From an archaeon (GTDB lineage Archaea > Nanobdellota > Nanobdellia > Pacearchaeales > UBA284), in contig CP070794.1 of assembly GCA_020343435.1 (NCBI GenBank), positions 583,712-647,711 on the forward strand: a stretch of 64,000 nucleotides of DNA, given 5' to 3'. Below are positions 1,430 to 21,124 of the stretch, piece by piece; within the stretch, counting starts at the first letter, position 1, and the number at the start of each line of letters is the position of its first letter. A model generated the notes under the pieces. The model did no database searches, was not told the origin of the DNA, and worked only from the letters and a program-made list of their open reading frames with translations. A program made the position numbers and the translations under genes.

Positions 1430-2845
1430 CTATTTAACTAATCGTTTTATAGCATTATTTATATGAAACATATCCCTATTCTTGAGAAAGTGGGCCACTT
1501 CTCTGAAAACTGTTGCTAAAAACCCTTGTTTTTTTAGATTATAAAAAACCATTGTTGTATCTATCCAATTTCTAGAATATCTTATATATCCCTCTTTTTC
1601 AAATCTTTTCATGATTTTTTTCTTAACTTGTTCAGGATAAGTTTCATCCCAATTTTCTGTTCTATAACCATGAAAATCATAATTATAGATATCTAAACCA
1701 GGATTATGTTTTTCAAAATTAAAATGAAATCTTGTATGCGGAACAGAATTAGCTATATTCATAAACACTTTTTCAGAATTAAGAGATAATGCAAAATTAA
1801 TTGTATCATCAATCTCTTCTTTTTTCTCTCCAGGAATACAAATCATAAATGAACAACAGGTTCTTATTCCAAGTTTTTGAGCTTCATTAACAGTATCTCT
1901 TGCTTTTTGTAATGTAAAATTCTTTCCTATTACTTCATTAAGAACTCTCTGTGATCCACTCTCTATACCAAAAAATATGAGATCACAACCAGATTCTCTC
2001 ATTTTTTTAAGAATTTCAGAATCCATAGTATTTATCCTACATCCTCCTGTCCAGGTTATATTTAATTCTTTCATAACATCACAAACTTTACTTAACCATT
2101 CTCTATCAGTTGAAACTTCATTATCTGAGAAATCAAATTTTCTTATTCCATATCTTTTTATCAATTCTTTTAATTCTTCTTTTAAGTTTTCAGGAGATCT
2201 TTGTCTATAAGTACCAGCAATTTTTCTTAAAGCAGGCATACAATTAGCACAGTTATAAGGACAAGATCTAGAACCTAGAATTGGAATACTTAATTTACCA
2301 AACATTTTTTGATAAATCCCCTGATTATATTTTTCTATATCTACAATATCTCTATCTGGAAAAGGTAGAGAATCTAAATCTTGAATCCAGGGCCTTGATT
2401 TAGTAACTTTCATCTTACCTTTTTCAAGATAAGCTATTCCTTTAACATCTTTTAAATTCATTTTTCCTTCAAAAACTTGAATTAATTCAAACATTGTTTC
2501 TTCACCTTCTCCAATAACCACAATCTCTGCTAATTGATTTTTGAAAAAATCATCTGGCATCAAAGTTGCATGGGGCCCGCCAGCAACAATCTTTATTTCA
2601 GGATTTATCTCTTTAATCCTCTTAACAATTCTTTTCAAACCTAAGAAAGATTTACTCATAACACTAAAACCTATAACATCAGTATTAGAGATTTCTTTAT
2701 ACAACTTCTCTTCTGGTTCTACCCCCAAATCAACCCCAACAACATTTTTGTAACCTTTATCTTTCAAATAAGAAGAAATATATGCTATTGATAATGGAAA
2801 CCCTGAGAAATATCCTGTTTTTAAATTAACAAGTAAGATTTTCAT
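1430..2845 (-). CDS. B12-binding-domain radical SAM enzyme (class B)
   Basis: The N-terminus looks like a Rossmann-type cobalamin-binding region (MKILLVNL..., VVIGEGEET). It is followed by the radical SAM cluster motif 'SCPYNCANC' (CxxxCxxC). Confidence 0.8.
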   Translation of the reverse strand: MKILLVNLKTGYFSGFPLSIAYISSYLKDKGYKNVVGVDLGVEPEEKLYKEISNTDVIGFSVMSKSFLGLKRIVKRIKEINPEIKIVAGGPHATLMPDDFFKNQLAEIVVIGEGEETMFELIQVFEGKMNLKDVKGIAYLEKGKMKVTKSRPWIQDLDSLPFPDRDIVDIEKYNQGIYQKMFGKLSIPILGSRSCPYNCANCMPALRKIAGTYRQRSPENLKEELKELIKRYGIRKFDFSDNEVSTDREWLSKVCDVMKELNITWTGGCRINTMDSEILKKMRESGCDLIFFGIESGSQRVLNEVIGKNFTLQKARDTVNEAQKLGIRTCCSFMICIPGEKKEEIDDTINFALSLNSEKVFMNIANSVPHTRFHFNFEKHNPGLDIYNYDFHGYRTENWDETYPEQVKKKIMKRFEKEGYIRYSRNWIDTTMVFYNLKKQGFLATVFREVAHFLKNRDMFHINNAIKRLVK

Positions 2846-2852
2846 TCTAGAA

Positions 2853-3587
2853 TTAACTAAAAGCTTCTTTCATAATACTTCTTGCATAAAGTAAATCAGT
2901 TTCTGTGTTAATATTAGTATACTTGTCAGCAACAAAAAAAGCCCTAACATGTTTATTATCATCTATAGCTGCTTGAATCAAATCAACCATTTCTTTTTCT
3001 CCTCTTATTGGATTGGTAGGAGTCCTATCAAGATAATTAAATAAATCAAAACTAAACACACAAAAACCAGTTCCTTGTAAATTTCCAGTAGGATTTTTTG
3101 GTTTTTCAACTAATCTATGAATTTTCCATTCAGGATCACACATCAAAGAATAAGTTCTTCCAATCTTACTGTGATCTTCTTCTTTGATAACTCCGCAAGA
3201 AGAAAACAATTTTTTCTCATTGAAATCTTTTATCATTTCATGAATTTTTGGTCCAGTTATAACTTGGTCCCCCATTCCCAAAACAAAATCTTGTCCCTCT
3301 AAGGCTTCTCTTGCAACTTCCATTGCATTAACAACCCCCCTTTGTTCTGGTTGTATTACATATTTTATTTTTTTACCTTTATATTCAATTCCAAACCTAT
3401 TTATCAAATCTTCAGCTCTATGACCAACAACCATGACTATTTCACTAATTTCAGGAATATTAACAAACATATCTAAATTATGTTCAATTAATCTTTTACC
3501 ATTTATCTCTATTAAACACTTATTTCCCCCATCTGTAAGTGGATCTATCCTTTTACCTCTCCCACCTGCAAGAATTAATGCTTTCAT
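2853..3587 (-). CDS. Sugar-1-phosphate nucleotidylyltransferase
   Basis: The N-terminal 'MKALILAGGRGKRIDPLT' loop is the signature of the NDP-sugar pyrophosphorylase family. The gene sits in a sugar-nucleotide context. Confidence 0.8.
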   Translation of the reverse strand: MKALILAGGRGKRIDPLTDGGNKCLIEINGKRLIEHNLDMFVNIPEISEIVMVVGHRAEDLINRFGIEYKGKKIKYVIQPEQRGVVNAMEVAREALEGQDFVLGMGDQVITGPKIHEMIKDFNEKKLFSSCGVIKEEDHSKIGRTYSLMCDPEWKIHRLVEKPKNPTGNLQGTGFCVFSFDLFNYLDRTPTNPIRGEKEMVDLIQAAIDDNKHVRAFFVADKYTNINTETDLLYARSIMKEAFS

Positions 3588-3590
3588 TTT

Positions 3591-4631
3591 TTAATGAAAA
3601 AGATTTCTATTTGCTTTTATCCATTCAACAATTTTAGTTACACCCTCTTTTGGAAGCACTTCTGGCTCCCATTTCAATTCCCTCTTAGCCTTATTGGTAT
3701 CAGAAACCCAGTATCTTAAATCTCCAAATCTATCTTTATCAAACTTTACTTCAGATTTCTTTCCAGATATTTCATCTATCATTTTAATACATTCAATCAG
3801 TGAAATCATTGTTTTCTCTCCACCACCAATGTTATAGATCCCAGGTTTTTGATTATTAAAGAAAGCATCAAATGCCTTTGCAACATCTGTGGCATATAAA
3901 ACATCTCTTAATTGTTTTCCTGTCCCAAAAATTGTTAAAGGCATCCCTAAAACATTCCTAATAGCGAAATTAGCAACCCAACCATGGTCTTCTCCACCAA
4001 ACTGATTAGGACCATAAATACCAGTTAATCTGAAACTTGCAGCCTTTAATTTGTAAGTATCAATAAAACATTGGACATAATGTTCAGCAGAAGATTTTGA
4101 AGCATGTAATGGGGTCACAACCCCCTGCAAAAGAGCTTCGCTTTCATCGATTGCTGCAGGATCTCTTACATACCTTGTTTCTTCTTCTTTTAATTCAGAG
4201 TTAATCTTATCAGGTCCATAACAATGTATAGAATTACATGATACAATTGGAATATCCCATTTTCTTGCAGCTTCTAGAACATTAAAAGTTCCCCTAACAT
4301 TTGTTGAAAAATCTAGTTCAGGATCTTCCCAACTCATAGTCATTGTTGGTTGTGCTGCAGTATGACAAATAAAATCACATCCCTCTGCAAATTTAATCAT
4401 AGTTTCCTTATCTCTGATATCTTCAACAGCAATCTTAACTCCAAGTTTTTCAAGAAAATCTTTATTGAAGTATCTTGCTTCAGGTTTCATATAAACGTTT
4501 CTTTTGAATTCATGCTTTGTAAGATTATCATAAGCAATAACTTCCCAACCTTTTTTTTGGTACATCTCACAGATGTGGCTTCCTAAAAAACCACACCCAC
4601 CAGTAACTAAAACCTTCATAACATAAGGCAT
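3591..4631 (-). CDS. NAD-dependent NDP-sugar epimerase/dehydratase (extended SDR)
   Basis: It carries the 'VLVTGGCGFLGSH' Rossmann motif and has extended-SDR length (346 aa). It ends 4 nt from the nucleotidyltransferase gene. Confidence 0.8.
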   Translation of the reverse strand: MPYVMKVLVTGGCGFLGSHICEMYQKKGWEVIAYDNLTKHEFKRNVYMKPEARYFNKDFLEKLGVKIAVEDIRDKETMIKFAEGCDFICHTAAQPTMTMSWEDPELDFSTNVRGTFNVLEAARKWDIPIVSCNSIHCYGPDKINSELKEEETRYVRDPAAIDESEALLQGVVTPLHASKSSAEHYVQCFIDTYKLKAASFRLTGIYGPNQFGGEDHGWVANFAIRNVLGMPLTIFGTGKQLRDVLYATDVAKAFDAFFNNQKPGIYNIGGGEKTMISLIECIKMIDEISGKKSEVKFDKDRFGDLRYWVSDTNKAKRELKWEPEVLPKEGVTKIVEWIKANRNLFH

Positions 4632-4710
4632 ATCTCATCATTTAAATAAATTTCTACAATAAAACAATATCTTTGAAGTAGTTACTAGGGAATTAATACA
4701 AAACCACAAT

Positions 4711-4718
4711 TTTTATAA
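4711..4718 (+). promoter_or_regulatory. TATA-like box for the 4742 ORF (leaderless spacing)
   Basis: 'TTTTATAA' lies exactly 23 nt before the ATG at 4742. This is the same spacer seen at four tRNA genes in this window. Confidence 0.45.
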
Positions 4719-4741
4719 ATTAGAGAAATCCCTAAAGTAAC

Positions 4742-5605
4742 ATGAGCGATGTAATAACATACCAACGTGCTAACTTCGATGAAGCTGCTATGAATGAATT
4801 ATGTGATGCAGTACACTCTCCCTCTTCACTCGATTTGACATTTACAGAAGGTGCTACAGAGGCCACAGCAATAATGGAAAGATTAAAGAAAGCTAGATTA
4901 ATCAGCGAAGGATCTCATTTACAATTGGGAACCAAGAGGATTACTTATGACCCTGATTCAAGAGTATTAAGTATTTCTTCAGTTCCTTTACAGTTTCCTT
5001 CATATGGTAAAGGAAGTTTGATGGAAGCAATTGGAGCTAGAGAAGAGAAAGAAGATTTAGTTGGTCCATTAACTAGTGTTTTTGTACATGTTCATGATGG
5101 AGAACTCTATTCAATGCAGATAAGAGGGGGTAACATTGGTGCTCCAGGAAAATTACAAATTCCAGCAGGATTCTGTGTCTATGATGTTCATCCTGCAACA
5201 ACAGCACTTAATGAAGTTGCAGAAGAAGTTTTCAAAGTAGATGATGAAGAAGCAATAGCAAGGGCTATAGAACAACATAGATTAGAATACTCCTTACCAA
5301 GAAACCAATTTTTGGATATAGCTCCATTTGTCCATGGAAGCGGGATGATAGACCCTTTATTGTCTTATGTTGTAAGAGCAGATTTAAGTGAAACTGGTTC
5401 AGTCATAACAAGTACAGATGATCTCAAAAAATTCGAAGCAGGATTGCCTTCTGAAAGAGTTGGAGAAGCATATACTTTCAGAGTTCCTTTAGAAAAAACA
5501 AGAGAACTTTTGGAAAAATTAGAACCAAAGATGTATGGTCCTGTAAGAAGAACTGGAGAAAGATTCTTAGATTGGTTTAATAAAGAAAAAGGAACTAATT
5601 ACTAA
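4742..5605 (+). CDS. Hypothetical protein with a degenerate Nudix-like box
   Basis: The coding call is clear: a 287-aa ORF with its own promoter box. The segment 'GKLQIPAGFCVYDVHPATTALNEVAEEVF' lines up position by position with the Nudix box Gx5Ex7REUxEExGU, but several catalytic positions are replaced. Composition is richer in G/A/R/E and poorer in K/I than the neighbouring genes. Confidence 0.35.
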   Translation: MSDVITYQRANFDEAAMNELCDAVHSPSSLDLTFTEGATEATAIMERLKKARLISEGSHLQLGTKRITYDPDSRVLSISSVPLQFPSYGKGSLMEAIGAREEKEDLVGPLTSVFVHVHDGELYSMQIRGGNIGAPGKLQIPAGFCVYDVHPATTALNEVAEEVFKVDDEEAIARAIEQHRLEYSLPRNQFLDIAPFVHGSGMIDPLLSYVVRADLSETGSVITSTDDLKKFEAGLPSERVGEAYTFRVPLEKTRELLEKLEPKMYGPVRRTGERFLDWFNKEKGTNY

Positions 5606-6698
5606 TAACTTTTCTACACTCTTGAACAATCCCTTCACTAAATCTATCCCAACTTAATTTTTCCCTGACAAATTTCTTCCCTTTTTCAGCTATTTTCTTA
5701 TGTTTTTTAGAATTCTTATAAACATCTAAAATTGATTTAACAAAATCTTTAGTTACAGTTCCAACACCTTCTTTTCTGATCATTGGGGAAGCAGTCATCT
5801 CATCAGAAACAATTATGGGTAAAGAAGCGCAAAGAGCTTCAAAAGGAGCCAACCATCCCCCCTGTGCCTTAACAGGATGCAAAAGAACATCACATGAATT
5901 ATATAGCCCTCTAACTTTAGATCTATCTACATGGCCTGTAAAGCTAACAAATTTTTCTAATTTATTTTTCTTAATATAATCATCTAAAACAGATTTATCT
6001 TTGTCCTCTCCCCACCCAGCAAATATAATTTTTAATTTAGGAATCTTATCTTTAATTTTATTTAAAGTTTTCAGGGTTTCTATCTGATTCTTAAAAGGAT
6101 TTAACATTCCAACATGTAGAACTGTAAAATCCTTTGATTTTTTCTTTTTAATTCTTTTAGAAAAGAAAGGATAATCTATCCCATAAGGTGCTATTCTATT
6201 AGGATTTTTATCATAAATTTTCTTAAATCTTTTATAATTATATTCATCAGCAACAACCACTCTGTTAATTTTCTCCTTGGCCAAGCATTTACCTATTTTC
6301 AACAAAATAGAGTTCTTAATCCTTGAAAAAAGAGATTTGGCTAACTTCAATCTTAAAAAAACAGCAGGTTCATTACACATCCAAACAGAAGGTTTTTTAT
6401 TAAATAATAAAGAATATTCAGCAGGATAATTATGGATATTCAAAACATCATATTTATGAGAATTTTTCCTGACTCCTTTATTCAAAGCAAGGATCTCTCC
6501 AAAATCAAAAGGTAATCTATCTTTTTTTTCAACAATAATCTCAGTGTCATCTAAATCTTTCCTCATCTGATCAGGAATCTCTGTTGTTAATATACCATTC
6601 TTAATCCCTTTTTTTGTCATATAATTAGCTAGCCTAACAATAAGATGTTCAGCACCCCCATAAACATACATGCCAGAATGAACAATTAAGATTCTCAT
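5595..6698 (-). CDS. Glycosyltransferase family 1 (GT-B, GT4-like)
   Basis: The protein shows 'MRILIVHSGMYVYGGAEH' and a C-terminal 'GGWLAPFEALCASLPIIVSD' EX7E-type region. I moved the start to the internal ATG at 6698, which abuts the stop of the upstream gene; the track start at 6767 would overlap that gene by 68 nt. Confidence 0.8.
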   Translation of the reverse strand: MRILIVHSGMYVYGGAEHLIVRLANYMTKKGIKNGILTTEIPDQMRKDLDDTEIIVEKKDRLPFDFGEILALNKGVRKNSHKYDVLNIHNYPAEYSLLFNKKPSVWMCNEPAVFLRLKLAKSLFSRIKNSILLKIGKCLAKEKINRVVVADEYNYKRFKKIYDKNPNRIAPYGIDYPFFSKRIKKKKSKDFTVLHVGMLNPFKNQIETLKTLNKIKDKIPKLKIIFAGWGEDKDKSVLDDYIKKNKLEKFVSFTGHVDRSKVRGLYNSCDVLLHPVKAQGGWLAPFEALCASLPIIVSDEMTASPMIRKEGVGTVTKDFVKSILDVYKNSKKHKKIAEKGKKFVREKLSWDRFSEGIVQECRKVISN

Positions 6699-6699
6699 T

Positions 6700-7899
6700 T
6701 TATATTTTTTCAGCAACTCCATATTTCTTTTCTCTAACTGTAGTGTTATAAGCTCTACATCCCTCACAAAGAATCGGGACCTTCTTATTTTTAAGAGTAA
6801 TCATCTCTCTAAACTTCCTATATCTTTTAGAGTTCCATATTTTTTTAAATGGAGTTTCATAAATATTACCAAAAGCATATTTTCTTAAGAAATCTCTTTT
6901 ATTACTCATCAAAACAGCACAACAAGGCATTACATATCCCCCCATCATAATATATGGTTCTGCCCAAGCTCTACATTCATGTAATGGGGGAAGTTCTTCT
7001 TTACTACTATGTGCAAAAGCAACCCTAATTCCATGTTTCTCTGCTCTTTTCAAAACCTCATTTCTGATTTCATCAGGAATTTTATCAACATAAAGATGTT
7101 CAACTTCTTTAAAACACAATAAACCAGCAAATTCTACCCTATACCCATCCCCTAAAGATTCTCTATCTCCTAATCCAGCGATAAAATCAATAAAATCAGG
7201 CATTTCATGAACATTTAATTTTGTAACAATAAATCTGAAACATAATTCTGGGATAGGGGATTTCATTTCTTTCTTTAGTTCAATCAAATCTTTAAGATTT
7301 TTTAAACTTCTATCCCATTTACATCCTCTTTTTATCTTTTCATAAGTCTTTTTATTAGAAGAATCCCAAGAGACCCAAATTCCATCCACACCCAATTTAA
7401 TAACCTTCTTAGAAGTTTCTTTATTTAGCAAATCAAAACTCTCTACAAGATATATTGGTAGTTTATGCTTCTTTTTCAAATAAGCAATCATCTTAATATA
7501 ATCTGGATTTAAGAAAGCATCACCTTCTCCTGTTAAATTAACCCATTTCAAATTAGGGAATTGATCAACCAATTCCTTAAATTCTTCAAAAGTAACATCT
7601 CTACTTGGTTCTTTCCAATAAGTATGTTCACAAATAACACATTTTTTATTACATTTGTTACTTACCTCAATTTCAAATGTAGAAGGCATAGGAACAAAAT
7701 TATTTACAGCAAATCTTGGGAATAACTTAAACCAAGGTTCTACCAGATACTTTCCCAAAAAATTAGAAGTACCCTCTCCTCCAGCCATTATAAAAGATTT
7801 AATATAAAGGAACTTAAACAAACCAACTGGCCCCTGTTTTTTCAAGAGATATCTCAAAGTTCTTCTATAGTTGTAAATTGCCTTTAAATTGCCTAACAT
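6700..7899 (-). CDS. Radical SAM protein with SPASM-like C-terminal Cys cluster
   Basis: 'CNKKCVICEH' is a CxxxCxxC motif. The Cys-rich C-terminus ('CRAWAEPYIMMGGYVMPCC', 'CEGCRAYN') resembles a SPASM/twitch auxiliary-cluster domain. Confidence 0.7.
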   Translation of the reverse strand: MLGNLKAIYNYRRTLRYLLKKQGPVGLFKFLYIKSFIMAGGEGTSNFLGKYLVEPWFKLFPRFAVNNFVPMPSTFEIEVSNKCNKKCVICEHTYWKEPSRDVTFEEFKELVDQFPNLKWVNLTGEGDAFLNPDYIKMIAYLKKKHKLPIYLVESFDLLNKETSKKVIKLGVDGIWVSWDSSNKKTYEKIKRGCKWDRSLKNLKDLIELKKEMKSPIPELCFRFIVTKLNVHEMPDFIDFIAGLGDRESLGDGYRVEFAGLLCFKEVEHLYVDKIPDEIRNEVLKRAEKHGIRVAFAHSSKEELPPLHECRAWAEPYIMMGGYVMPCCAVLMSNKRDFLRKYAFGNIYETPFKKIWNSKRYRKFREMITLKNKKVPILCEGCRAYNTTVREKKYGVAEKI

Positions 7900-8006
7900 C
7901 TTATGGTCCCCTTAACCATGCTTAATAAAACACATATTTAAAGTTTTGTTTAGTTTATTATATCCGATAGTAAAGAATATAAAAACCCATTTTGTATTAA
8001 ATTAAT

Positions 8007-9533
8007 ATGGCATATGATCTTGAAAAACATAAGCGAGATTTATTAAAACAAAAGGTTGTTAAAAATTCTGTTTACAACTCTTTTGCGATTCTTGTAAGCA
8101 AATTTGGAGGATTTATCTTCACAATCATAGTAGCAAGACTTCTATTCCCAGAATTATTTGGTATATACACTCTTGCATTAGCTTTAATATTAACTCTGGC
8201 AACAATTACAGAACTAGGAATTAATACAACAATTATCAGATTTATAGCAGATTCCTTAGGTAAGAAAAATGGAAAACAAGAAGCAAGGTCTAGGTTGAAA
8301 TTCTTATTCACAATTAGAATTCTTTTTACTTTTGCTATATCAATCCTCTTATTTATATTTTCAAAACAAATAGCTATAGGAGTATTTAGCAAACCTTTAC
8401 TACAATTACCACTCCAAATTGGAGCCATTTACTTAATTGTTAACTCAATACAACAAGTAATCCTTTCAATATTCGTAGCATTACAAAAGATAAAACATGT
8501 TGTAACATCTGAAATAATATTCCAAGTTTCAAGAATAGCATTAATCTTTATTTTCTTGTACTTCTTCAAATCAGTTAGTTCAGTATTCATAACCTTATCC
8601 ATTGCAATAGGTTTAACGATTTTAGTGATGTACCTTATTTTAGCTAAAGAGGATAAGTATCTCTTAAAAGGCAAAACTCTTCCTGTTGAAAGAAGAAGAT
8701 TACTGAGCTTCTTTAGTTGGATGACTTTATCAGCAATTTCTTTAATGATATTAACAAGAATTGATACTTTCATCTTAGGAGCATTTTTAAAATCTCAGTT
8801 TATTGGTTATTATGGAGCGATTTTTACAATAATTTCTACAGCAGCTTTAGCAATAACTTTCTCAGGAGTTCTACTTCCAGTTTTCACACAACTACAAGGA
8901 AGAAATCTAAAAACGTTATTCCAAAAAACGTTCCATTACATCTGTCTATTTTCTATACCCCTAGCTCTAGGATTGGCGATAATGATTCCTTGGATTATCA
9001 GAGTAATCTTTGGAGCAGTATATGTTCCAACAGCTTACACAACACAATTAACAATTACTGCAGCACTATTAGCATTTATTGTAATAGAAACACCAATCAC
9101 CAATTTCTTTGCAATGGTCTTTACTGCAAAAGAAAAGACAAAAACACCAGCTCTTCTAGCATTCTTTTCCTTAGTTTTAATAATTGTTCTAAGCTTCTTA
9201 ATAATCCCTCCATTTATTAGGATATCCCCACAACATGGATTAATCGGAGCAGCCTTAGCAGTGGTAATTGGAAGAGTATTCTATCTAATTATTCTTGCTG
9301 TACTCACAAAAACAAATCTAAAATTACTTTCAAAACCAATGTCAATAATAAAACCAGTTATAGCATCAATAATCATGGTTTTTGTTTTATTATGTTTTGT
9401 TAACTTTACATCTCTAAATCTATTCTGGGGGATAATTTCAATCATAGTAGCAATAGCAGTTTACTTCTTAGTAATGGTTTTAATAAAAGGAGCAACTGTT
9501 GATGATCTTAAACTAATAAAACTTATCAGATAG
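8007..9533 (+). CDS. Oligo/polysaccharide flippase (MOP/Wzx-like)
   Basis: This 508-aa polytopic membrane protein has about 12-14 helices and sits in a glycan-cluster context. Confidence 0.7.
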   Translation: MAYDLEKHKRDLLKQKVVKNSVYNSFAILVSKFGGFIFTIIVARLLFPELFGIYTLALALILTLATITELGINTTIIRFIADSLGKKNGKQEARSRLKFLFTIRILFTFAISILLFIFSKQIAIGVFSKPLLQLPLQIGAIYLIVNSIQQVILSIFVALQKIKHVVTSEIIFQVSRIALIFIFLYFFKSVSSVFITLSIAIGLTILVMYLILAKEDKYLLKGKTLPVERRRLLSFFSWMTLSAISLMILTRIDTFILGAFLKSQFIGYYGAIFTIISTAALAITFSGVLLPVFTQLQGRNLKTLFQKTFHYICLFSIPLALGLAIMIPWIIRVIFGAVYVPTAYTTQLTITAALLAFIVIETPITNFFAMVFTAKEKTKTPALLAFFSLVLIIVLSFLIIPPFIRISPQHGLIGAALAVVIGRVFYLIILAVLTKTNLKLLSKPMSIIKPVIASIIMVFVLLCFVNFTSLNLFWGIISIIVAIAVYFLVMVLIKGATVDDLKLIKLIR

Positions 9534-11747: not shown

Positions 11748-11827
11748 ATCTCTACTTACATCATAGAATTATTAAAGATTATGGTATAACTGGATAACTT
11801 TATAAATTTCAACCAATTTCCAGGATT

Positions 11828-12762: not shown

Positions 12763-12773
12763 CAAAAATTTAA

Positions 12774-13509: not shown

Positions 13510-13598
13510 TCTTGTGGTCTCTGTATAATAATAGTTAAAAAAATCAAATATAGCCTCCAGATCAATAAATTTATAAGTTAAATTTAATAATTAGGCAT

Positions 13599-15053
13599 AT
13601 GAAAGTTTTGTTATTGAACCCCCCCTATCTACCTTATTACTCTAGGCAAAGTAGATCTCCCTGTGTAACTAAGAGTGGAACACTATACTATCCTTATTTT
13701 TTAGCTTATACTACAGGAATCTTAGATGAATTAGACTTTGATACCAAGTTACTTGATGCTGTTGTAAACAACCTTTCTCATGAAGAAACTATCAAAGAAG
13801 TAAAAAAATTCAATCCAGATCTGATAGTTATAGAAACAAGTACACCAAGTATAAAGAATGATATTTCTATAGCTAAAAAAATAAAAAGAGCACTTCCAAA
13901 ATCTCATGTTAATTTATTGGGGGTTCATGCAACAGCCTTGCCAGCAGAAACTCTAAAAGAGGCAGGCATAGTTGATTCAATATGTAGGGGAGAATATGAA
14001 TACACTGTAAGAGATCTTGCAATAGCGATAAAAGATAAAAAATCTTTAAATAAAATCTTAGGATTATCTTTTAAAAGAAAAAATAAAATAACTCATAATA
14101 AACCAAGACCTCTTTTAAGAGATATAGATAAATTACCTTTTGTTTCTAAAGTTTATAAAAAACATTTTGGAAAAGAAGGAATCAAGAAATATTTCTATTC
14201 TTCCTTAAGATGGCCACAAGTAACAATTCTAACTGCAAGAGGATGTCCCCACAACTGTACTTTCTGTAATTCCCCATTTAAGGGATCATATAGGCCAAGA
14301 AGTCCAGAGAATGTTGTTAAAGAGTTTCAATTCATAAAAAAAGAACTACCTTTTGTTAAAGAAATCATGATTGAAGATGAAACTTTTCCAGCATTAAAGA
14401 GAAGAACAATCAAAATATGTAAACTTTTAATAAAGAAAAAAGTAAAATTAAACTGGTCATGTAATGCTCGTGTAGACACAGATTTAGAAACCCTTAAAAT
14501 AATGAAAAGAGCAGGAGCAAGACTTTTATGTGTTGGTTTTGAGAGTGTTGAACAAAAATCTTTAGATGCTATTGGAAAAGGAACTAGCAAACATATACAA
14601 AACATATTTATTAAAAATATAAGAAAAGCAAAACTACTTGTTAATGGATGTTTTATTTTAGGATTACCTGGAGAAACTAAAGAAGATATCCAAAGAACAA
14701 TAGAATTTGCAAAAAAACTTAATCCGGACACTGCTCAATTCTATCCTTTAATGGTTTATCCAGGAACAGCTGCTTATGAATGGGCAAAAAAACAAAAATA
14801 TATCAAAACAGAAGATTATTCTAAATGGTTAACAAAGGAAGGACATCACAACACAGTTGTTTCAAGGTCAGGATTATCAAATAAAGAGCTTGTGGCCTTA
14901 TGCGACCTTGCTAGAAAGAATTTCTATTTAAGAGCATCTTATCTCATCCCAAAAATAGCCCAAATAATCTCAAATCCTCAAGAAGCAAAGAGAACACTTA
15001 AATCTGGAAAAACCTTTTTCCCCTATATGAAAAAAGTTTTACTTAAAAAATGA
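13599..15053 (+). CDS. B12-binding-domain radical SAM enzyme (class B), second copy
   Basis: 'MKVLLLNPP...' opens an N-terminal B12-like domain. The radical SAM motif 'GCPHNCTFC' follows. It overlaps the downstream GT2 gene through an ATGA junction. Confidence 0.8.
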   Translation: MKVLLLNPPYLPYYSRQSRSPCVTKSGTLYYPYFLAYTTGILDELDFDTKLLDAVVNNLSHEETIKEVKKFNPDLIVIETSTPSIKNDISIAKKIKRALPKSHVNLLGVHATALPAETLKEAGIVDSICRGEYEYTVRDLAIAIKDKKSLNKILGLSFKRKNKITHNKPRPLLRDIDKLPFVSKVYKKHFGKEGIKKYFYSSLRWPQVTILTARGCPHNCTFCNSPFKGSYRPRSPENVVKEFQFIKKELPFVKEIMIEDETFPALKRRTIKICKLLIKKKVKLNWSCNARVDTDLETLKIMKRAGARLLCVGFESVEQKSLDAIGKGTSKHIQNIFIKNIRKAKLLVNGCFILGLPGETKEDIQRTIEFAKKLNPDTAQFYPLMVYPGTAAYEWAKKQKYIKTEDYSKWLTKEGHHNTVVSRSGLSNKELVALCDLARKNFYLRASYLIPKIAQIISNPQEAKRTLKSGKTFFPYMKKVLLKK

Positions 15054-16045
15054 AAGTTTCAGTAATAATCCCCACATATAATTCTAAAGATACTCTAATC
15101 AAATGTCTAAATTCTTTGATTAAGCAAAATTATAGATCAAAATATGAGATTATTGTTATTGATGATGGATCTACTGATAAAACAGGAGAAGCTATCAAAA
15201 AAAATTTCAAAAAAAGTAAACTTATCAGATATTTTTCTCAAAAAAATAAAGGGCCAGCAGTTGCTAGAAACTTTGGTGCTAAAAAAGCAAAAGGGGAATT
15301 CATATTATTTACAGATGCTGATTGTGTTCCTGAGAAAAATTGGATAAAAAATATTACTTCCCCATTCAAAAATAAAAAAGTTGTGGGAGTCTCAGGATCT
15401 TATGGAAAAAACCTTAATAAAAAAAGTATAATTTCAAGATTAATTCATTTTGAGATTCTTGAAAGATATAAAAAATTAAAAAAACAAAAAGAAATTGATT
15501 TTATCTCTACATATTCTGCAGCATATAGGAGAAAAATTTTCTTAAAAACAAAAGGGTTTGATGAATCTTTCAAAAAACCAGCAGGAGAAGATACAGAACT
15601 TTCTTTTAAAATGCATAAATATGGGAAACTAATCTTTAAACCAGAAGCAAAAGTAGGGCATTTCCATAGAAGCGCCCTAACAAAATACATAAAACAAAAA
15701 TCAACAACAGGATTCTGGAGAGCAGATCTGTACATGAAACATTCTAATAAAATATTTAGACATTCCTTTACCCCCTTAAAAGATTATTTTGAATTAGCTC
15801 TTTTAGGATTAGCCTTTCTATTCTTAATCTTCTTTTTAATATCATTTAATACAGTTTTATTATACGTTTTTTTAGGATTCCTAATTGCTAGCATAGCTTG
15901 TTCTCTAAGAACTGTACTTAAAATAAAAGGAGATCCAGAATTAGCGATCTTAGCTCCTTTCATAATCCTTATAAGAAACTTCTTTTTAGGGTGGGGAGCT
16001 TTTGTGGGTTTCTTCAAAAAGAAAAGGAAATTAAATAACAAGTAG
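15050..16045 (+). CDS. Glycosyltransferase family 2 with C-terminal membrane helices
   Basis: 'VSVIIPTYNS', 'VIDDGSTD' and 'FTDADC' (DxD) are GT-A motifs. The C-terminal tail is hydrophobic. Confidence 0.8.
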   Translation: MKVSVIIPTYNSKDTLIKCLNSLIKQNYRSKYEIIVIDDGSTDKTGEAIKKNFKKSKLIRYFSQKNKGPAVARNFGAKKAKGEFILFTDADCVPEKNWIKNITSPFKNKKVVGVSGSYGKNLNKKSIISRLIHFEILERYKKLKKQKEIDFISTYSAAYRRKIFLKTKGFDESFKKPAGEDTELSFKMHKYGKLIFKPEAKVGHFHRSALTKYIKQKSTTGFWRADLYMKHSNKIFRHSFTPLKDYFELALLGLAFLFLIFFLISFNTVLLYVFLGFLIASIACSLRTVLKIKGDPELAILAPFIILIRNFFLGWGAFVGFFKKKRKLNNK

Positions 16046-17095
16046 AATTCCAATAATTACAAGGAGTATCTCTAACGTCCATAATGCCCAAACAACATCA
16101 GTTTCCCTAACCTTGTGATTTGGTTTTATCTTCTTAATAAATCTTAAAAAGAAATGTGTTAAACTATATATCTTCTTAGATTTTGGTTCTAAATATCCAT
16201 CTTTTGTTGGTCTTCCAAAGTTTTGAGCTTTAAACTTACTTCTCCATTTTAAAAATCCTTCAATTATAAATGGTATAAATAGGAATAACGCGAATTGTTC
16301 CATATTACCAAAAACAGCAAAACAAGCTACAAGCGCACCAATCCCAAACGTTAAACTATCTCCTGGGAAAACTTTCGCTGGGAATTTATTAAATATCAAA
16401 AATCCAATTAAAGCTAAAATTGCAATTGCAGCAATCAAAGCTAACCAAGGTTGTCCTGTTGCTAAAGCTAAAACACCAAAACCAGCAAACATTATTATCC
16501 CAAACCCTGTTTCTAATCCATTATATCCTGCTAAAAGATTAAATCCATTTGTTGCCCCAACAACAGCTATTGTAACAACTACTAAAGGATAAGCTAATCC
16601 AATCCAAACTTGTCCAAGAATAGGCAAACTAATAATATCAATACCAGCATTCATAACAACTAATGGGATTGCTGCTGGCAATGTGAATAACATTCTCTTC
16701 CAACCCCCAATCCCTCTTCCTTTTCTACCTAAAAATTCAGCAAATATTTCTTTATCTTTAGTAACTTTCATACTTAAAACATCATTAAAGAATCCAATTA
16801 ATGAAGCTACGATTACTGTAATTATTATAACAAAAAGTTCTGTAGATTGTGAAGAATTCTTAAAAACAAAAGTATTAAAGAATATGTAAACAAAAATAGC
16901 AGTTATGATTGCAACTATGGGCATCATCCCCCCAAAATCAGAAACCTCTCTTTTATCATACTTGTTCATATCTTTACCAAGTATTCCATTCCTTCTAGCC
17001 ATCCCAATCCAGTTTTTGGTAAAATCAAAACTAAGTAAAAAAGCAACAACTAAACAAATTACTAATATTAATCCGTTTATAAGCACATTTACCAT
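16031..17095 (-). CDS. aglH: UDP-GlcNAc:dolichyl-phosphate GlcNAc-1-phosphate transferase (AglH / Alg7 / WecA-MraY family)
   Basis: This polytopic membrane protein carries 'FNDVLSM', 'NGFNLLAGYNGLE' and 'FPGDSLTFGIG' PNPT-family motifs. Its start overlaps the aglB stop, so the two are likely co-transcribed. Confidence 0.8.
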   Translation of the reverse strand: MVNVLINGLILVICLVVAFLLSFDFTKNWIGMARRNGILGKDMNKYDKREVSDFGGMMPIVAIITAIFVYIFFNTFVFKNSSQSTELFVIIITVIVASLIGFFNDVLSMKVTKDKEIFAEFLGRKGRGIGGWKRMLFTLPAAIPLVVMNAGIDIISLPILGQVWIGLAYPLVVVTIAVVGATNGFNLLAGYNGLETGFGIIMFAGFGVLALATGQPWLALIAAIAILALIGFLIFNKFPAKVFPGDSLTFGIGALVACFAVFGNMEQFALFLFIPFIIEGFLKWRSKFKAQNFGRPTKDGYLEPKSKKIYSLTHFFLRFIKKIKPNHKVRETDVVWALWTLEILLVIIGILLVI

Positions 17096-19845
17096 AATGG
17101 GAATGGCAGATCACTTTCTCTGCTTAAGTAACGTTTAATTGTTTCTTCAGGAACTTCAAAATTAGAAGGATAATCAACCTTCCATATCTTTATTGGCCCG
17201 TTCATTTGACCACCAGCAAATATTAAATCACCAACATCAAGATTATAATTTGCTTTTAGTTCTGCAACAACAGGAGCAGGTTCTTTATACCCTAATTCAA
17301 AGTTTTCTGAATCATTAAAAAGATATAGTTTTGCCCATAAAGCATTCATTGTTTTTTCAGAGAGATACATCGAAGCCCCGAAGTTATTTAATCCTTGTTG
17401 ATCAACACTGGGCACAATATAGAAACACCCTTCAAAAACATTAGTTTTATTTCCAGTTAAATCAAATAAATCATTATTAATATAAACGTATCTTACTGGA
17501 ATCATATATTGCTGTTCATTATATATCAACACAGCTTCCACCATTTTAATATTGTTATCTTGATCTGTAGTCATTATAAATGCAGGAATCCCAGCTTTTT
17601 GTTTTGGGAATATTTGCCCCATATACTTAAAATCAGCATCCAACAGTGTTCCACCCAGATAAGCATATTTTTTCTCATCTCTTGTTTCTTGTGTTTGTTT
17701 TGGATCCATAACAAAAGTTCCTATCCATGTATACCTATCCCACCCAGTTTCATCAGAACCAATGCTACTATAAGCACTAGCTTTTCCAATATCAGTGGAA
17801 TCTATCAAAAGATAACTAGTATTGTGAGCATATAAAAATTCTAAAGCATCTTTTTCTTCAGGCGTCGTTAAAACATATCTTGCCATAAGATAATTCCAGA
17901 ATCCTCCATGGCCTGCATGGCCCCCATCAAGAATTGTTGGTCGTTCTCCTATACTCTGTACCCAGTATCCATAATCCCACCAATGTGCAAAAATAGAATC
18001 TTCAGTTGTGTTTTCTCTAACCCAAGACATTGCTCTTTGCCATTGTTGATTATAAGCACCTGGAATAGTAAATTTAGCACTGTTTGCAGTTCTTTGTTCA
18101 TAATTGATAAATGTAATTATTAATAGAATAGCAATAACTATTACTAAACACCACACAACAATCTTTCTTAATTCATCTTTTGATTTTGCAAATGTAAATA
18201 ATTTAATCGGCAGGAATGAAAATGCTAAAATCATAAAAGGACTTATTATGAAGAATAATCTTATCCCTCCCCTTATTGAAATTATTGTCCAGAAAATTGC
18301 TGAAATTAAAAGCAAGTAACCGAATTTTATATTTTTGAAATCATCAGATCCTTCTATGTAAGATTTTATGTAGGCATATAATAAATAAACAATAAAAATT
18401 ATTGGCCCCGCAAAATACAAGAACTTACTAAAACCATTTTCTCCATTAAACACACTTCCTGGAGAATGTCTTGAGAACAATAAGAACACTAAAAATATGA
18501 AGAATGTGATTAAAAGACCTGTCCTTAATTTCTTATTCTTAAAATGTTGTATTGCTGAGTAGAATAATAAGATAACTCCAATGAAGAATAGCCAGAAAAC
18601 AGTTTTTGAAAAGCTTGCTAAGAGTTCAACCAAGTAAGGAGCTCTATTTTCAGCAACAGTCAAACCAATTCTACCAGTACCAAAAGGATGAACTAATCTA
18701 GAGGTTATTTCTGAAAATAAACTTCCAATTAGTGAGGGATTAATAATAAGAGCAACTATAAAAGCGACAATAACTGATATGATTATGCTCACTATGCTTC
18801 TCGGTAGTTTTATATTCTTTAATTTCTCTTTAATCTTCGTTTCAAACAGAATTTTATCAATAATCATGAGTATTAAGATTATGAAACAGAACCCAACATC
18901 AGACATACTCTTTAAAGCAGCATTCAAACTAAACGCAGGATCTATGGCTGCAATTGTAATAAGGCTTAAAATAAACCACATAATGTAAACCATAAATTCT
19001 TTTTTCCTTATTTTCCCAAACAAGAAAGCTATGAGCATTGCCAATCCTACAATCATGAAGATATACTTGCTTCCTCCAGCCCATGAAGACATCATTAATC
19101 CTGTAGCAATTCCAGCGATTACTGAAAAGATCATTGCCTTTTTACCCTTAGAATCCCAACCTAAAACAAAGAAATAAAGTGCTAAGAATAAAAAGAATAT
19201 GCCTGAAGATTCGTGTTCTGGAATTCCCGCGATGGTTCTATGTAACATATCTGGGATAATTGCAAAAAAAGCCGTAGAAACTAAAGCAGCAATATTTGTT
19301 TTCGTTTTATCAAGGAATTTAGCAAAAACTCTTCTTGAAAATAAGAAAAAGAAAACTATCGCTAAACAAAAAAAAACTGCAGGAAATAAAATCGCAGATA
19401 ACTTAAACTGTATATTTGGACTAAATATTGATGTTATTTTGTGGAATCCCGCAATAAGATATGAATGAAGATTATACGACGCCTCTACTCCCAATGGCGC
19501 AGCTCTCATCATATCTGGATTCAAAGGAGATCCATGAGTTGATATTTCTTCAGCAATTCGCGTATACCAGAATGGATCCAAATCTGGTCCAAGCGTATAA
19601 TTTCCAGTTGTAACATCTTTTAATCCAGAAACATTAGAGATTCTTATAAAAAAAGCAAGAGCGATTATTGCCAATAATATAATCAAGATTATCAATGGCC
19701 ATTTGGGCTTAATAGCACCTTTCTTTTGAGGTTTAGATTCAACAATAACTTTCTTAGGTTCCTCTTTTTTAATTTCAACAGGTTTTTCTTGAATTTCCTC
19801 TGTTCTTGGTTCTTCAATTTTAATATTTTGAGTAGTTTCTTCCAT
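17089..19845 (-). CDS. aglB: Archaeal oligosaccharyltransferase AglB (STT3 homologue)
   Basis: The 918-aa protein has about 13 N-terminal TM helices with 'GPDLDPFWY' in the first loop. The diagnostic 'HWWDYGYW' (WWDYG) motif is followed by a soluble C-terminal domain. The N-terminal cytosolic extension is K/E-rich. Confidence 0.92.
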   Translation of the reverse strand: MEETTQNIKIEEPRTEEIQEKPVEIKKEEPKKVIVESKPQKKGAIKPKWPLIILIILLAIIALAFFIRISNVSGLKDVTTGNYTLGPDLDPFWYTRIAEEISTHGSPLNPDMMRAAPLGVEASYNLHSYLIAGFHKITSIFSPNIQFKLSAILFPAVFFCLAIVFFFLFSRRVFAKFLDKTKTNIAALVSTAFFAIIPDMLHRTIAGIPEHESSGIFFLFLALYFFVLGWDSKGKKAMIFSVIAGIATGLMMSSWAGGSKYIFMIVGLAMLIAFLFGKIRKKEFMVYIMWFILSLITIAAIDPAFSLNAALKSMSDVGFCFIILILMIIDKILFETKIKEKLKNIKLPRSIVSIIISVIVAFIVALIINPSLIGSLFSEITSRLVHPFGTGRIGLTVAENRAPYLVELLASFSKTVFWLFFIGVILLFYSAIQHFKNKKLRTGLLITFFIFLVFLLFSRHSPGSVFNGENGFSKFLYFAGPIIFIVYLLYAYIKSYIEGSDDFKNIKFGYLLLISAIFWTIISIRGGIRLFFIISPFMILAFSFLPIKLFTFAKSKDELRKIVVWCLVIVIAILLIITFINYEQRTANSAKFTIPGAYNQQWQRAMSWVRENTTEDSIFAHWWDYGYWVQSIGERPTILDGGHAGHGGFWNYLMARYVLTTPEEKDALEFLYAHNTSYLLIDSTDIGKASAYSSIGSDETGWDRYTWIGTFVMDPKQTQETRDEKKYAYLGGTLLDADFKYMGQIFPKQKAGIPAFIMTTDQDNNIKMVEAVLIYNEQQYMIPVRYVYINNDLFDLTGNKTNVFEGCFYIVPSVDQQGLNNFGASMYLSEKTMNALWAKLYLFNDSENFELGYKEPAPVVAELKANYNLDVGDLIFAGGQMNGPIKIWKVDYPSNFEVPEETIKRYLSRESDLPFPLW

Positions 19846-19891
19846 TTTTTATTTTAAGCTATACACCCTTTATATCTTTTGTTATTATAAA

Positions 19892-21124
19892 TCATTGCTT
19901 TCGTAGACTAACAATCAGCAACGTCACAAACATGAAAATATTGACTATTAAGATCATAGTGATATACTGCATTAATGTGGAGTGGAAAATTAATAAAAGA
20001 GCCACTTGCATGAATACTGCTGATGCTAGAATTCTAATACTTATTTTCTTATTTTTATTAATAGATAAATTATAAAAGACCATTAAAGTTGATAAGGAGA
20101 AGAAACTAAATGCTAGAATTATATATTTAAGTATTGGAGCAACATCAAGATATTTAGATCCTAAGAAAACACTAATCCATACTTTTGGGAAAAATATAGA
20201 GATCACTAAAAATAAAGCAAAAAGTCCACAGATCATAAGGGCAGTTTTACCCAATAATTTTCTCGATTTTTTTTGATTTTTCTCTTCCTTAACTATTGAA
20301 GGTAACATAACCCTCTTAGCATTCATAGCAATAAAGAACAGAGATTTGGCAATCATAGATAAACCAGCATACCATCCTGAAACTGTTTCAGTGAAAAAAT
20401 AACGAGCAAGTATAACATCTATAGAATGTAGAGCAGCAATTAATGAAAATAGAGCCAATGATGCCACAACGTATTTAGATACTTTTTCTCCAGGAACTTT
20501 AACTGGCTTCGTTTTTAGAATATCTTTTATAGGAATCAATCCAACTAAAAAAGATAATAGAATAGAAGCTGGAATCGCTGCTATTGCTCCAATAACCTTC
20601 CATGGTCCCGGAAGAAGTAAAACCAATAGAACAGCAATTCCTAACTTAAAGAACATCTCTGCAGAGTTATTTATCCCAAGTTGTTTAAATCTAAAAGTTC
20701 CTTGTAAAATCCCCCAAACTATTGGTAAAATAAATGCGAAAATAAGCGCAATTCCAATTAGCATTAGGGGCAGCGAAGTTGTTTTGAACAAAGTTTTGAG
20801 ATATGGAATCAATAAAAGAAAAATCACGAATACAATAACTCCTATCAAAAGCATCTGTTTCAAAAATTTCGAAAATAAGAAATGGATCTTACCTTTCTGC
20901 CCTTTTCCTAAGAACTTGGTAGAAAATCTTGATAAAACAGTTCTAATAGTCTCTTGAGGAATTGTTAGAATATAACTAAAAGCAATTAAAGAATATAATA
21001 AACTATATGATTCAACACTTAAAAAACGAGCCATTAGAATATAAAATAATGCACTAGCTAATCCAGCAAAACTTGACCAACCCCATAGTGTAAATGTGTT
21101 TTTAACTAGTTTAGATTTTGCCAT
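19892..21124 (-). CDS. Polysaccharide biosynthesis / flippase-like membrane protein (MOP superfamily)
   Basis: This 410-aa polytopic membrane protein lies directly downstream of the aglB-aglH pair. Confidence 0.55.
   Translation of the reverse strand: MAKSKLVKNTFTLWGWSSFAGLASALFYILMARFLSVESYSLLYSLIAFSYILTIPQETIRTVLSRFSTKFLGKGQKGKIHFLFSKFLKQMLLIGVIVFVIFLLLIPYLKTLFKTTSLPLMLIGIALIFAFILPIVWGILQGTFRFKQLGINNSAEMFFKLGIAVLLVLLLPGPWKVIGAIAAIPASILLSFLVGLIPIKDILKTKPVKVPGEKVSKYVVASLALFSLIAALHSIDVILARYFFTETVSGWYAGLSMIAKSLFFIAMNAKRVMLPSIVKEEKNQKKSRKLLGKTALMICGLFALFLVISIFFPKVWISVFLGSKYLDVAPILKYIILAFSFFSLSTLMVFYNLSINKNKKISIRILASAVFMQVALLLIFHSTLMQYITMILIVNIFMFVTLLIVSLRKQ

Follow-up and report, generated by a model that had tools for sequence, protein, structure and literature searches.

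An AglB-anchored N-glycosylation island in a DPANN archaeon

The stretch of DNA analysed here (referred to as the window; 64,000 nucleotides) is the last 64 kb of the genome of a Woese-/Pacearchaeota-type DPANN archaeon, a single contig of 647,887 bp that is estimated to be 85.6% complete. Positions 1430–21124 of the window constitute a real, complete and unusually large N-glycosylation (agl) island anchored by the gene for the oligosaccharyltransferase AglB, which takes up about 3% of the host's 0.65-Mb genome. The island consists of a conserved core, in which AglB lies beside the priming enzyme AglH, and of a glycan cassette whose content varies from genus to genus. In the window genome the cassette includes two genes for a split glycosyltransferase of the Alg13/Alg14 family, which probably extends the product of AglH while a lipid-linked glycan is being built.

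The core of the island is readily recognized. An open reading frame (ORF) listing combined with Pfam and NCBIfam scans recovered every gene that the initial annotation, made from the sequence letters alone, had named in this interval (table 1). The WWDYG motif ascribed to AglB is indeed present, at residues 622–626, in a protein that also carries DPF (90–92), E210-x-E212 (aligned to the D-N-E of eukaryotic STT3) and TVAE (396–399), and that is the sole STT3 homologue in the genome. The AglH gene overlaps that of AglB, as had been claimed, its start running 7 nt into the AglB end. With NGFNLLAGYNGLE and VFPGD, aligned to human NAINILAGINGLE and VFVGD, AglH keeps the Asn and catalytic-Asp motifs typical of its superfamily, and judged by profile comparison it appears nearer to human DPAGT1 (the Alg7 homologue) than to MraY, with a profile of 12 DPANN AglH sequences scoring 110.7 bits (E 8e-31) against the former and 69.7 bits against the latter. 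The alignment with DPAGT1 ends before the sugar-recognition loop of the human enzyme; a YSLTH motif, possibly equivalent to that loop, is conserved in DPANN AglH.

AglH is the only polyprenyl-phosphate priming enzyme of the genome. It is the sole member of the polyprenyl-phosphate N-acetylhexosamine-1-phosphate transferase (PNPT) family, and no polyprenyl-phosphate hexose-1-phosphate transferase (PHPT; PF02397) was found in the genome by a search that was positive in 9 of 14 control genomes. Within the order AglH is nearly universal, occurring in 54 of 61 relatives (and in 23 of the 25 high-quality genomes), mostly as a single copy and usually directly beside AglB, and its identity drops smoothly with taxonomic distance.

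Mapping the island proteins by tblastn onto regions fetched from relatives revealed a common frame, clearest within the same family, with the order IF2B, SpoIIM, a short MOP protein, AglB, AglH, a variable cassette of 6–12 kb, a Wzx flippase and SecD. In most of the relatives' loci examined the frame is kept and the content varies, each genus having a different mix of GT4, GT2, B12-radical S-adenosylmethionine (SAM), methyltransferase and epimerase genes in the cassette. The comparison across related genomes that had been proposed as a check of the initial annotation bears out the AglB–AglH frame, but not the Alg14/13-like pair as a fixed part of it. The window genome has an additional 6.5 kb between SecD and the flippase, with genes for a B12-radical SAM enzyme, a pyrophosphorylase, a dehydratase, a Nudix-like protein, a GT4 enzyme and a SPASM radical SAM enzyme, and its island is therefore the largest among those examined. 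The arrangement resembles replaceable surface-glycan islands.

An Alg14/13-like pair linked to AglB and AglH

The two halves of the split enzyme are encoded by two ORFs with a stop codon between them and an ATGA overlap, indicating translational coupling of the pair and not a single fused Alg14-13 polypeptide. The Alg13-like half starts at the ATG at 12265, within this overlap with the Alg14-like stop, rather than at 12211 as initially annotated. About 21 nt upstream of the Alg14-like ATG (window 11800–11827) there is a TTTATAAA box, a position that would fit an archaeal transcript of the pair with no leader or a very short one.

Several DPANN lineages show a genomic linkage of the pair to AglB or AglH, which is supported by the following loci and which we regard as credible. 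The window genome has the pair in the same island as both genes, and the whole island of one relative (G028), located at L009:8069–15577, reads flippase, Alg14-like, Alg13-like, GT2, methyltransferase, AglH, AglB; in two further relatives (G018 and G009) the pair lies beside AglB and/or AglH. An Iainarchaeum genome has, at L067:110–5362, a tight co-directional operon of AglB, AglH, the Alg14-like and Alg13-like genes and a GT2 gene, followed by an unrelated MscS gene. AglH directly adjoins the pair in an unclassified archaeon (L018), and another family has three genomes in which the pair, a B12-radical SAM gene and AglB are found inside 6 kb.

The bacterial homologues occur in a different setting, namely in classical cps/eps loci with genes for Wzz/BY-kinase, CpsB and UDP-glucose dehydrogenase, and with a PHPT gene within 4 kb in 21 loci. 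One could imagine that in the archaeon, too, the pair and much of the cassette build a separate, non-protein surface glycoconjugate (like an exopolysaccharide (EPS), a capsule or a glycolipid), with only AglB and AglH serving N-glycosylation. Both halves indeed pass the PssD/PssE cut-offs, their nearest matches are mostly cps/eps genes of Bacillota and Bifidobacterium, the distribution of the pair is patchy and accessory (see below), and one island houses two MOP transporters. However, the genome lacks a PHPT or any second priming enzyme, Pfam and NCBIfam scans of the island proteins detected no Wzy-, Wzz-, BY-kinase- or CpsB-type gene, and in the Iainarchaeum operon and the G028 island the pair represents one of only two or three glycosyltransferases beside AglB. 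We therefore hold a separate glycoconjugate to be improbable.

Family, distribution and phylogeny of the pair

The homology of the pair to the Alg13/14 family stands, but its description as specifically eukaryote-like does not. Both halves exceed the cut-offs of the respective PssD and PssE models (table 1). The 146-aa Alg14-like protein contains no hydrophobic segment that would correspond to a membrane anchor of the Alg14 type, and its PF08660 match spans only model positions 73–171; the Alg13-like half carries the prokaryotic PRL..GE(H/V)xDxHQ loop, and a long branch separates it from vertebrate ALG13 (see below). The Alg14-like half has an ASGGH motif at residues 8–12; this catalytic-His motif was shown to be essential in Agl24 by Meyer et al. 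(PMC8993221). The best PDB sequence match of the Alg13-like half is yeast Alg13, at only 21 bits over 58 residues, and the two have HAGTGS and DNHQ in common; HAGTGS and DxHQ are shared among family members with differing donor sugars. An AlphaFold2 model of the Alg13-like half (predicted local distance difference test score 89) retrieved in Foldseek only generic GT-B C-terminal halves (UGTs, MurG).

The PssE label itself calls for caution. The model scores human and Xenopus ALG13 at 94–95 bits (human 93.7) and a Streptococcaceae EpsF-type protein at 118 bits. Since it separates donor types poorly, the family label says little about the donor sugar, and following this calibration we dropped the passing of the PssE cut-off as evidence against N-acetylglucosamine (GlcNAc).

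The pair is a rare, accessory module of prokaryotic type that is not co-conserved with the priming enzyme. The Alg13-like protein occurs in 7 of the 61 relatives, at 36–40% identity; of 300 high-quality genomes sampled evenly across the phylum, 10 have the pair. The nearest matches in 185,579 species genomes (35–42% identity) come mostly from Bacillota and Bifidobacterium and from a few archaea, in a search that was built on a nine-sequence alignment with a pattern biased to the prokaryotic loop and that could not retrieve eukaryotic, Asgard or Agl24 sequences.

To place the pair phylogenetically, we inferred trees without Asgard, Agl24, MurG or non-vertebrate eukaryotic sequences, eukaryotes being represented, in one of the two, by six vertebrate ALG13 entries (P0055, P0078, P0128, P0164, P0167 and P0171) from a database search with a human ALG13 query that is itself not in the tree; the matches listed in that search were all vertebrate. 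The tree from the concatenated Alg14-like and Alg13-like sequences groups the window pair with those of Aenigmatarchaeota, G028, G018, a Methanoperedens and one member of Dehalococcoidia (SH-aLRT 95). The 70 bacterial rows of the main block make up a separate clade (SH-aLRT 97), and a larger clade of 75 rows adds three lactic-acid-bacterial sequences and, near its base, two archaeal ones (SH-aLRT 96). In the Alg13-only tree the six vertebrate sequences sit on a branch of 2.39 substitutions per site, apart from all 86 prokaryotic sequences (support 99/96), and the DPANN sequences constitute a basal grade leading to the bacterial clade. The initial annotation had named grouping of the pair with bacterial EPS enzymes as a result that would undermine its interpretation; the pair is indeed of the PssDE/EpsEF type, but it is not nested in the bacterial EPS clade, being instead part of an archaeal grade beside it. 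These results agree with an earlier report that Euryarchaeota and DPANN have split genes of the EpsE/EpsF type, intermingled with those of bacteria, and that eukaryotes branch with Asgard lineages (Meyer et al. 2022, PMC8993221). By its sequence, then, the pair is a prokaryotic-type module of which the literature already has examples, and a chitobiose product is not inferable from it.

Four relatives (G009, G030, G035 and G040; L011–L014) have a second, long-branch subtype of the DPANN pair, which always stands divergently beside a SPASM radical SAM gene and near B12-radical SAM genes, and which reaches a still higher PssE score (170.7 bits for the G030 copy). The pairs of Methanoperedens (L040) and the dehalococcoidian (L076) are sisters with full support, which would point to a transfer of the split enzyme between an archaeon and a bacterium. 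Another genome (G312; L118) contains two copies each of an Alg13-like gene and the neighbouring B12-radical SAM gene, with the same scores and at a distance of 5.4 kb (C15:7246–7689 and 12615–13058), suggesting a recent tandem duplication of the module.

That homologues of Alg7, Alg13/14 and STT3 lie together in one N-glycosylation island, as initially annotated, is thus correct, whereas the chitobiose-type core deduced from this is possible but unproven. According to that deduction, AglH, the pair and AglB would build a GlcNAc-β1,4-GlcNAc core on dolichyl pyrophosphate, to be elaborated afterwards; we consider this rather doubtful. It is in line with the preference of the AglH profile for DPAGT1 over MraY, with an acceptor context provided by a PNPT and not a PHPT, with the motifs common to the Alg13-like half and yeast Alg13, with a PssE label compatible with GlcNAc (given the scores of human and Xenopus ALG13), and with the position of the pair in the same split clade as eukaryotic Alg13/14 (PMC8993221). 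Arguing to the contrary are the length of the branch to vertebrate ALG13, the absence of the Alg14 transmembrane anchor, the prokaryotic loop, and the absence of GlmS and GlmU (see below); moreover, organisms with chitobiose cores universally possess Alg13/14 or Agl24, in contrast to the scattered presence of the pair. UDP-GlcA is a further donor in the family (PssD/PssE and, by its model name, WelK), and we identified no residue pattern in the family that separates the donors. The characterised relatives, too, take UDP-Glc or UDP-Gal as well as UDP-GlcNAc (PMC8993221). Finally, AglB has no double sequon (DNNTWNNT-like) after WWDYG, a trait of STT3 of the eukaryote, TACK and Asgard type (PMC8993221), and this also speaks against a eukaryote-like system; a DGGHAGHGG sequence stands where the eukaryotic-type STT3 subunit in PDB chain 8i9p_Lh has 'DNN'.

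A probable pathway and the evidence bearing on it

The overall interpretation that we favour, and hold to be probable, is a stepwise pathway in which the order of reactions and all sugar identities are predictions. AglH would put N-acetylhexosamine (HexNAc)-1-phosphate, probably GlcNAc-1-phosphate, on dolichyl phosphate to give Dol-PP-HexNAc, and the heterodimer of the Alg14/EpsE-like and Alg13/EpsF-like proteins would add a second sugar, most likely in β-1,4 linkage. The glycan would then be extended by three GT4 enzymes and the membrane-anchored GT2, with the pyrophosphorylase, the 4,6-dehydratase, the Nudix-like protein, the methyltransferase, the two B12-radical SAM enzymes and the SPASM enzyme supplying and modifying an unusual sugar that is probably deoxygenated and/or methylated. 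The Wzx-type MOP flippase, possibly together with the second, divergent MOP protein, would move the lipid-linked glycan outward, and AglB would transfer it to N-x-S/T sites of a sequon-rich surface proteome.

For the second of these steps, the addition of a sugar to Dol-PP-HexNAc by the pair, we find the case reasonably good. PssD/PssE and Cps14F/Cps14G are second-sugar β-1,4 transferases. The same is true of MurG, Alg13/14, Agl24 and EpsE/EpsF, the characterised members of the family, which add the second sugar, β-1,4-linked, to a polyprenyl-PP-monosaccharide (PMC8993221). Since all characterised members act on such an acceptor, and since the pair is linked to AglH and AglB in a genome devoid of PHPT, the most economical assumption is that the pair extends the AglH product.

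Several observations weigh against this pathway. About 90% of the relatives that keep AglH and AglB have no pair, so step 2 must be carried out there by other enzymes, and the pair might serve at a later stage or with a different acceptor. Eukaryotes and those Crenarchaeota that make chitobiose conserve the second-step enzyme to the same degree as the first (PMC8993221), which is not so here. In the three genomes of another family mentioned above, the pair, although close to AglB, is 44–55 kb away from AglH. The usual route to UDP-GlcNAc appears closed, making salvage necessary, since the genome lacks both GlmS (best match 51 bits against a cut-off of 418; present in 14 of 14 control genomes) and bifunctional GlmU, the sole match to the archaeal GlmU model being the 244-aa nucleotidyltransferase of the island, which has no acetyltransferase half. 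In addition, the literature on DPANN archaea contains neither biochemistry of such enzymes nor glycan analyses (PMC11407970; bioRxiv 10.1101/2023.10.27.564410).

A further point of this kind concerns AglH itself. The Asp-Asp motif after its third transmembrane segment (residues 101–127), present in human DPAGT1 and in 19 of 21 other aligned DPANN orthologues, appears as Asn-Asp in the window copy and in G004, its closest orthologue, and as Asp-Asn in G028; the window and G004 proteins also have an insertion of about 17 residues straight after the motif. Because the rest of AglH is well conserved (65% identity), the Asn-Asp form is a derived variant rather than a sign of decay. In Methanococcus voltae, it is the GT2 enzyme AglK and not AglH that reportedly makes Dol-P-GlcNAc for N-glycans, as Larkin and colleagues are said to have found in 2013. 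One may ask whether the N-glycan is built here on dolichyl monophosphate by a GT2-type initiator, as reported for some Euryarchaeota, AglH having a different or minor role. The membrane-anchored GT2 directly beside AglH, the Asn-Asp variant with its insertion and the reported difference between DPANN AglB and the eukaryote-like type of TACK and Asgard archaea (PMC8993221) would fit this scenario, but the GT2 enzyme is not AglJ/Dpm1-like (see below), and the presence of AglH in nearly all relatives, usually next to AglB, bespeaks a core role. Furthermore, the glycine-rich GGxGGH motif of MurG, Alg14 and Agl24 has been proposed to bind the diphosphate of the acceptor (PMC8993221). A monophosphate-based route hence strikes us as quite unlikely, and we retain the pathway starting with Dol-PP-HexNAc.

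Radical SAM enzymes as tailoring candidates

It is the recurrent cobalamin/radical SAM tailoring set, rather than the Alg13/14-like pair, that makes up the less ordinary part of the island. All three radical SAM enzymes, two of them B12-binding and one with a SPASM domain, have an intact CxxxCxxC motif, and the same types recur in various DPANN families beside AglB and beside Alg14/13-like pairs: in nine genomes examined the pair has B12-radical SAM genes in its company, and homologues of the SPASM enzyme (6700–7899) flank the second pair type in four relatives. The enzyme encoded at 13599–15053 matches the HpnJ model (TIGR03471) end to end with 391.5 bits, short of the cut-off of 577.6, the next model being BchE with 204 bits. 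Its gene is coupled by an ATGA overlap to that of the GT2 enzyme, and the two are kept together in G018 (69% and 56% identity, respectively). The best NCBIfam matches of the GT2 enzyme are MftF and EpsD; HpnB scores 45 bits, and HpnI is absent among the matches listed (25 of 26). No deacetylase was found in the island. We accordingly rejected the identification of the 13599–15053 protein as HpnJ proper, given the missed cut-off and the missing HpnI/HpnK partners, as well as that of the GT2 enzyme as a Dol-P-sugar synthase of the AglJ/Dpm1 type, AglJ scoring just 37 bits.

Relatives of the B12-radical SAM enzymes are known to act on sugars, HpnJ in ring contraction of glucosamine, MoeK5 in moenomycin tailoring and GenK in methylation of an aminoglycoside sugar (PMC9204698), and in our literature search we came across no account of radical SAM enzymes taking part in N-glycosylation in archaea. 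We tentatively entertain the idea, which at present looks more doubtful than not, that the three enzymes, by oxygen-independent radical chemistry, might alter a sugar residue in the dolichol-linked N-glycan or in the nucleoside diphosphate (NDP)-sugar serving as its precursor, either by C-methylation or by an HpnJ-style ring contraction to a carbocyclic unit.

A sequon-rich surface proteome

The presumed targets of AglB were sought by counting sequons in all 583 ORFs of the genome against the expectation from composition. The giant ORF at 58561–63999, which has no Pfam family, ranks first genome-wide (z = 13.5), with 101 N-x-S/T sequons compared with 29.6 ± 4.8 in composition-preserving shuffles. 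The initial annotation of this ORF as the likely client, with about 100 sequons, is therefore right as to the count and as to its place as the top predicted client, but the client role is not confined to it. Secreted-type proteins (with an N-terminal hydrophobic segment and no more than two transmembrane helices) have 989 sequons where 493 are expected (ratio 2.0), as opposed to 409 versus 450 (ratio 0.91) in proteins without transmembrane helices, and z exceeds 7 in no fewer than eight further large proteins of the secreted type. In view of this excess across secreted-type proteins, N-glycosylation would seem to concern the surface proteome as a whole rather than a single client. Seven large secreted-type proteins other than that of the giant ORF, with z of 7–9, are encoded at C1:449858–452500, 324718–328875, 1944–4373, 455256–460469, 488132–491020, 71625–74918 and 235369–238107.

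Gene content of the island

The families assigned to the individual gene products are listed in table 1, in which scores below a cut-off are given as such. Three glycosyltransferases that the initial annotation had called GT1 are members of Pfam Glycos_transf_1, which corresponds to GT4 in CAZy. Of the two MOP-type flippases it had listed, the one at 8007–9533 is confirmed by Pfam; its orthologues (28–49% identity) occur in 10 of the relatives' loci examined, beside SecD wherever SecD is within the fetched region. The other, at 19892–21124, scores just 22 bits with PF01943, under the cut-off, and is recognized by profile–profile comparison only (hhalign with the Wzx-type family: 98.5% probability, E 1.5e-15, 372 columns); its orthologues adjoin AglB or AglH in 11 of the relatives' loci examined.

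The ORF at 4742–5605 had not been named in the initial annotation. It encodes a protein of 287 aa, rich in arginine, glycine and glutamate, whose window copy has no Pfam or NCBIfam match and which has 22 relatives among 1.84 billion representative proteins. Five of 16 members of this family match PF00293 (best E-value 1.2e-10), and the family alignment displays a Nudix box, the first Glu and the Arg of which are replaced in the window copy. Just outside the island is a SpoIIM gene that most of the examined loci of the relatives also have directly at the AglB/AglH block, whether or not the short MOP gene intervenes, and it is possible that the SpoIIM-family protein belongs to the glycosylation machinery.

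Table 1. Genes of the N-glycosylation island and associated features (window coordinates).
Coordinates	Strand	Predicted product	Evidence
1430–2845	-	Class B radical SAM enzyme, B12-binding, not assigned to a particular subfamily	PF02310 77.5 bits, PF04055 83.4 bits; CPYNCANC at residue 195; best NCBIfam HpnJ 177, ApyD 169, BchE 159 bits, all far under cut-offs
2853–3587	-	NDP-sugar pyrophosphorylase, nucleotidyltransferase domain only	PF00483 102.9 bits; NCBIfam AglF 141, archaeal GlmU N-terminal half 126, RmlA_long 122 bits, none reaching cut-off
3591–4631	-	NAD-dependent sugar 4,6-dehydratase/epimerase	PF01370 146.6 bits, PF16363 119.5 bits; best NCBIfam dTDP-glucose 4,6-dehydratase 151 bits, under cut-off
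4742–5605	+	Divergent Nudix-fold protein, degenerate Nudix box, possibly NDP-sugar hydrolase	Family alignment
5595–6767	-	GT4-family glycosyltransferase (Pfam Glycos_transf_1)	PF00534 77.6 bits; no NCBIfam family above cut-off
6700–7899	-	Radical SAM/SPASM-domain enzyme	PF04055 53.5 bits, PF13186 54 bits; CNKKCVIC at residue 83; Cys cluster at C-terminus
8007–9533	+	Wzx-type MOP flippase	PF01943 109.4 bits; 14 predicted transmembrane segments
9526–10644	-	GT4-family glycosyltransferase	PF00534 130.9 bits, PF13439 61.6 bits; best NCBIfam PglJ 111 bits, under cut-off
10641–11747	-	GT4-family glycosyltransferase	PF00534 82 bits
11828–12268	+	Alg14/EpsE (PssD/Cps14F)-type acceptor-side half of split GT-B enzyme	NF041549 PssD 141.3 bits (cut-off 110), PF08660 73.7 bits
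12265–12762	+	Alg13/EpsF (PssE/Cps14G)-type donor-side half	NF041548 PssE 132.8 bits (cut-off 120), PF04101 60 bits
12774–13565	-	SAM-dependent methyltransferase	PF13489 42.5 bits, PF08241 33.3 bits
13599–15053	+	HpnJ-like B12-binding radical SAM enzyme	TIGR03471 full-length, sub-cut-off; CPHNCTFC at residue 216
15050–16045	+	Membrane-anchored GT2 glycosyltransferase	PF00535 137.7 bits; 2–3 C-terminal transmembrane helices
16031–17095	-	AglH, PNPT-family polyprenyl-phosphate HexNAc-1-P transferase (Alg7/DPAGT1 homologue)	PF00953 94.5 bits (cut-off 27)
17089–19845	-	AglB oligosaccharyltransferase (STT3 family)	PF02516 57.4 bits (cut-off 24.5), TIGR04154 107.9 bits; 14 predicted transmembrane segments
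19892–21124	-	Divergent shortened MOP-family membrane protein, second putative flippase	hhalign
21126–22019		SpoIIM-family (PF01944) membrane protein with six transmembrane segments	Adjoins AglB/AglH block
58561–63999	+	Giant sequon-rich surface protein, open at window and contig end	Sequon count

Relation to known systems and implications

The agl clusters of Haloferax volcanii and Methanococcus and O-antigen-like islands have similar flanking glycosyltransferases, a flippase, sugar-nucleotide genes and methyltransferases, and likewise combine a conserved frame with variable content. The present island differs from the Haloferax and Methanococcus clusters in its DPANN host, in its three radical SAM enzymes and in its PNPT-type rather than GT2-type initiation. 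With the eukaryotic Alg7 (DPAGT1)–Alg13/Alg14–STT3 system it has in common the same three families, here in one locus, the split second-step enzyme, the (G/A)SGGH motif and an AglH that matches DPAGT1 best, but its Alg14-like protein is unanchored, its Alg13-like protein has the prokaryotic loop, its pair is accessory and its AglB is devoid of the double sequon. The chitobiose-making AglH–Agl24–AglB system of Sulfolobus acidocaldarius (Meyer et al. 2022, PMC8993221) similarly employs a GT-B enzyme of the MurG/Alg13-14 family with the GGH histidine motif after a PNPT; however, Agl24 is a single fused polypeptide belonging to a clade of its own, which is conserved in a number of orders of Crenarchaeota, whereas the enzyme of the island is split, of the EpsE/EpsF type and rare.

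In terms of sequence, the bacterial EpsE/EpsF, Cps14F/Cps14G and PssD/PssE enzymes are the closest family, sharing the two-gene layout and the absence of a transmembrane anchor, yet they work with PHPT, Wzz/BY-kinase and CpsB on PP-linked glucose (PMC8993221), in contrast to the island with its AglB and PNPT and no PHPT. As regards the tailoring enzymes, the 13599–15053 protein is related over its full length to HpnJ, a member of the group that also includes MoeK5 and GenK (PMC9204698), and its coupling with a GT2 is reminiscent both of HpnI–HpnJ and of MoeK5 acting on a lipid-linked saccharide. Unlike in the HpnJ system, the enzyme of the island scores under the cut-off, hopanoids and an HpnK-type deacetylase are missing, and the GT2 is not HpnI-like.

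The current picture of the origin of eukaryotic N-glycosylation is left unchanged by these findings, as DPANN homologues of the EpsE/EpsF type are already part of it. Their significance lies rather in the biology of DPANN archaea, from which no N-glycan or lipid-linked oligosaccharide has been characterised and whose surface is thought to mediate attachment to the host. The island shows how a glycan cassette is swapped between genera while the AglB–AglH frame is kept, and the linkage of the split enzyme to AglB and AglH provides cloneable candidates, such as the minimal Iainarchaeum operon, with which to ask whether chitobiose-like cores occur beyond TACK, Asgard and eukaryotes. The radical SAM tailoring set may conceivably turn out to be the most novel element of the island, although we would not yet count on it; if these enzymes do remodel the glycan, they would give rise to a kind of N-glycan residue that has yet to be described for any domain of life.

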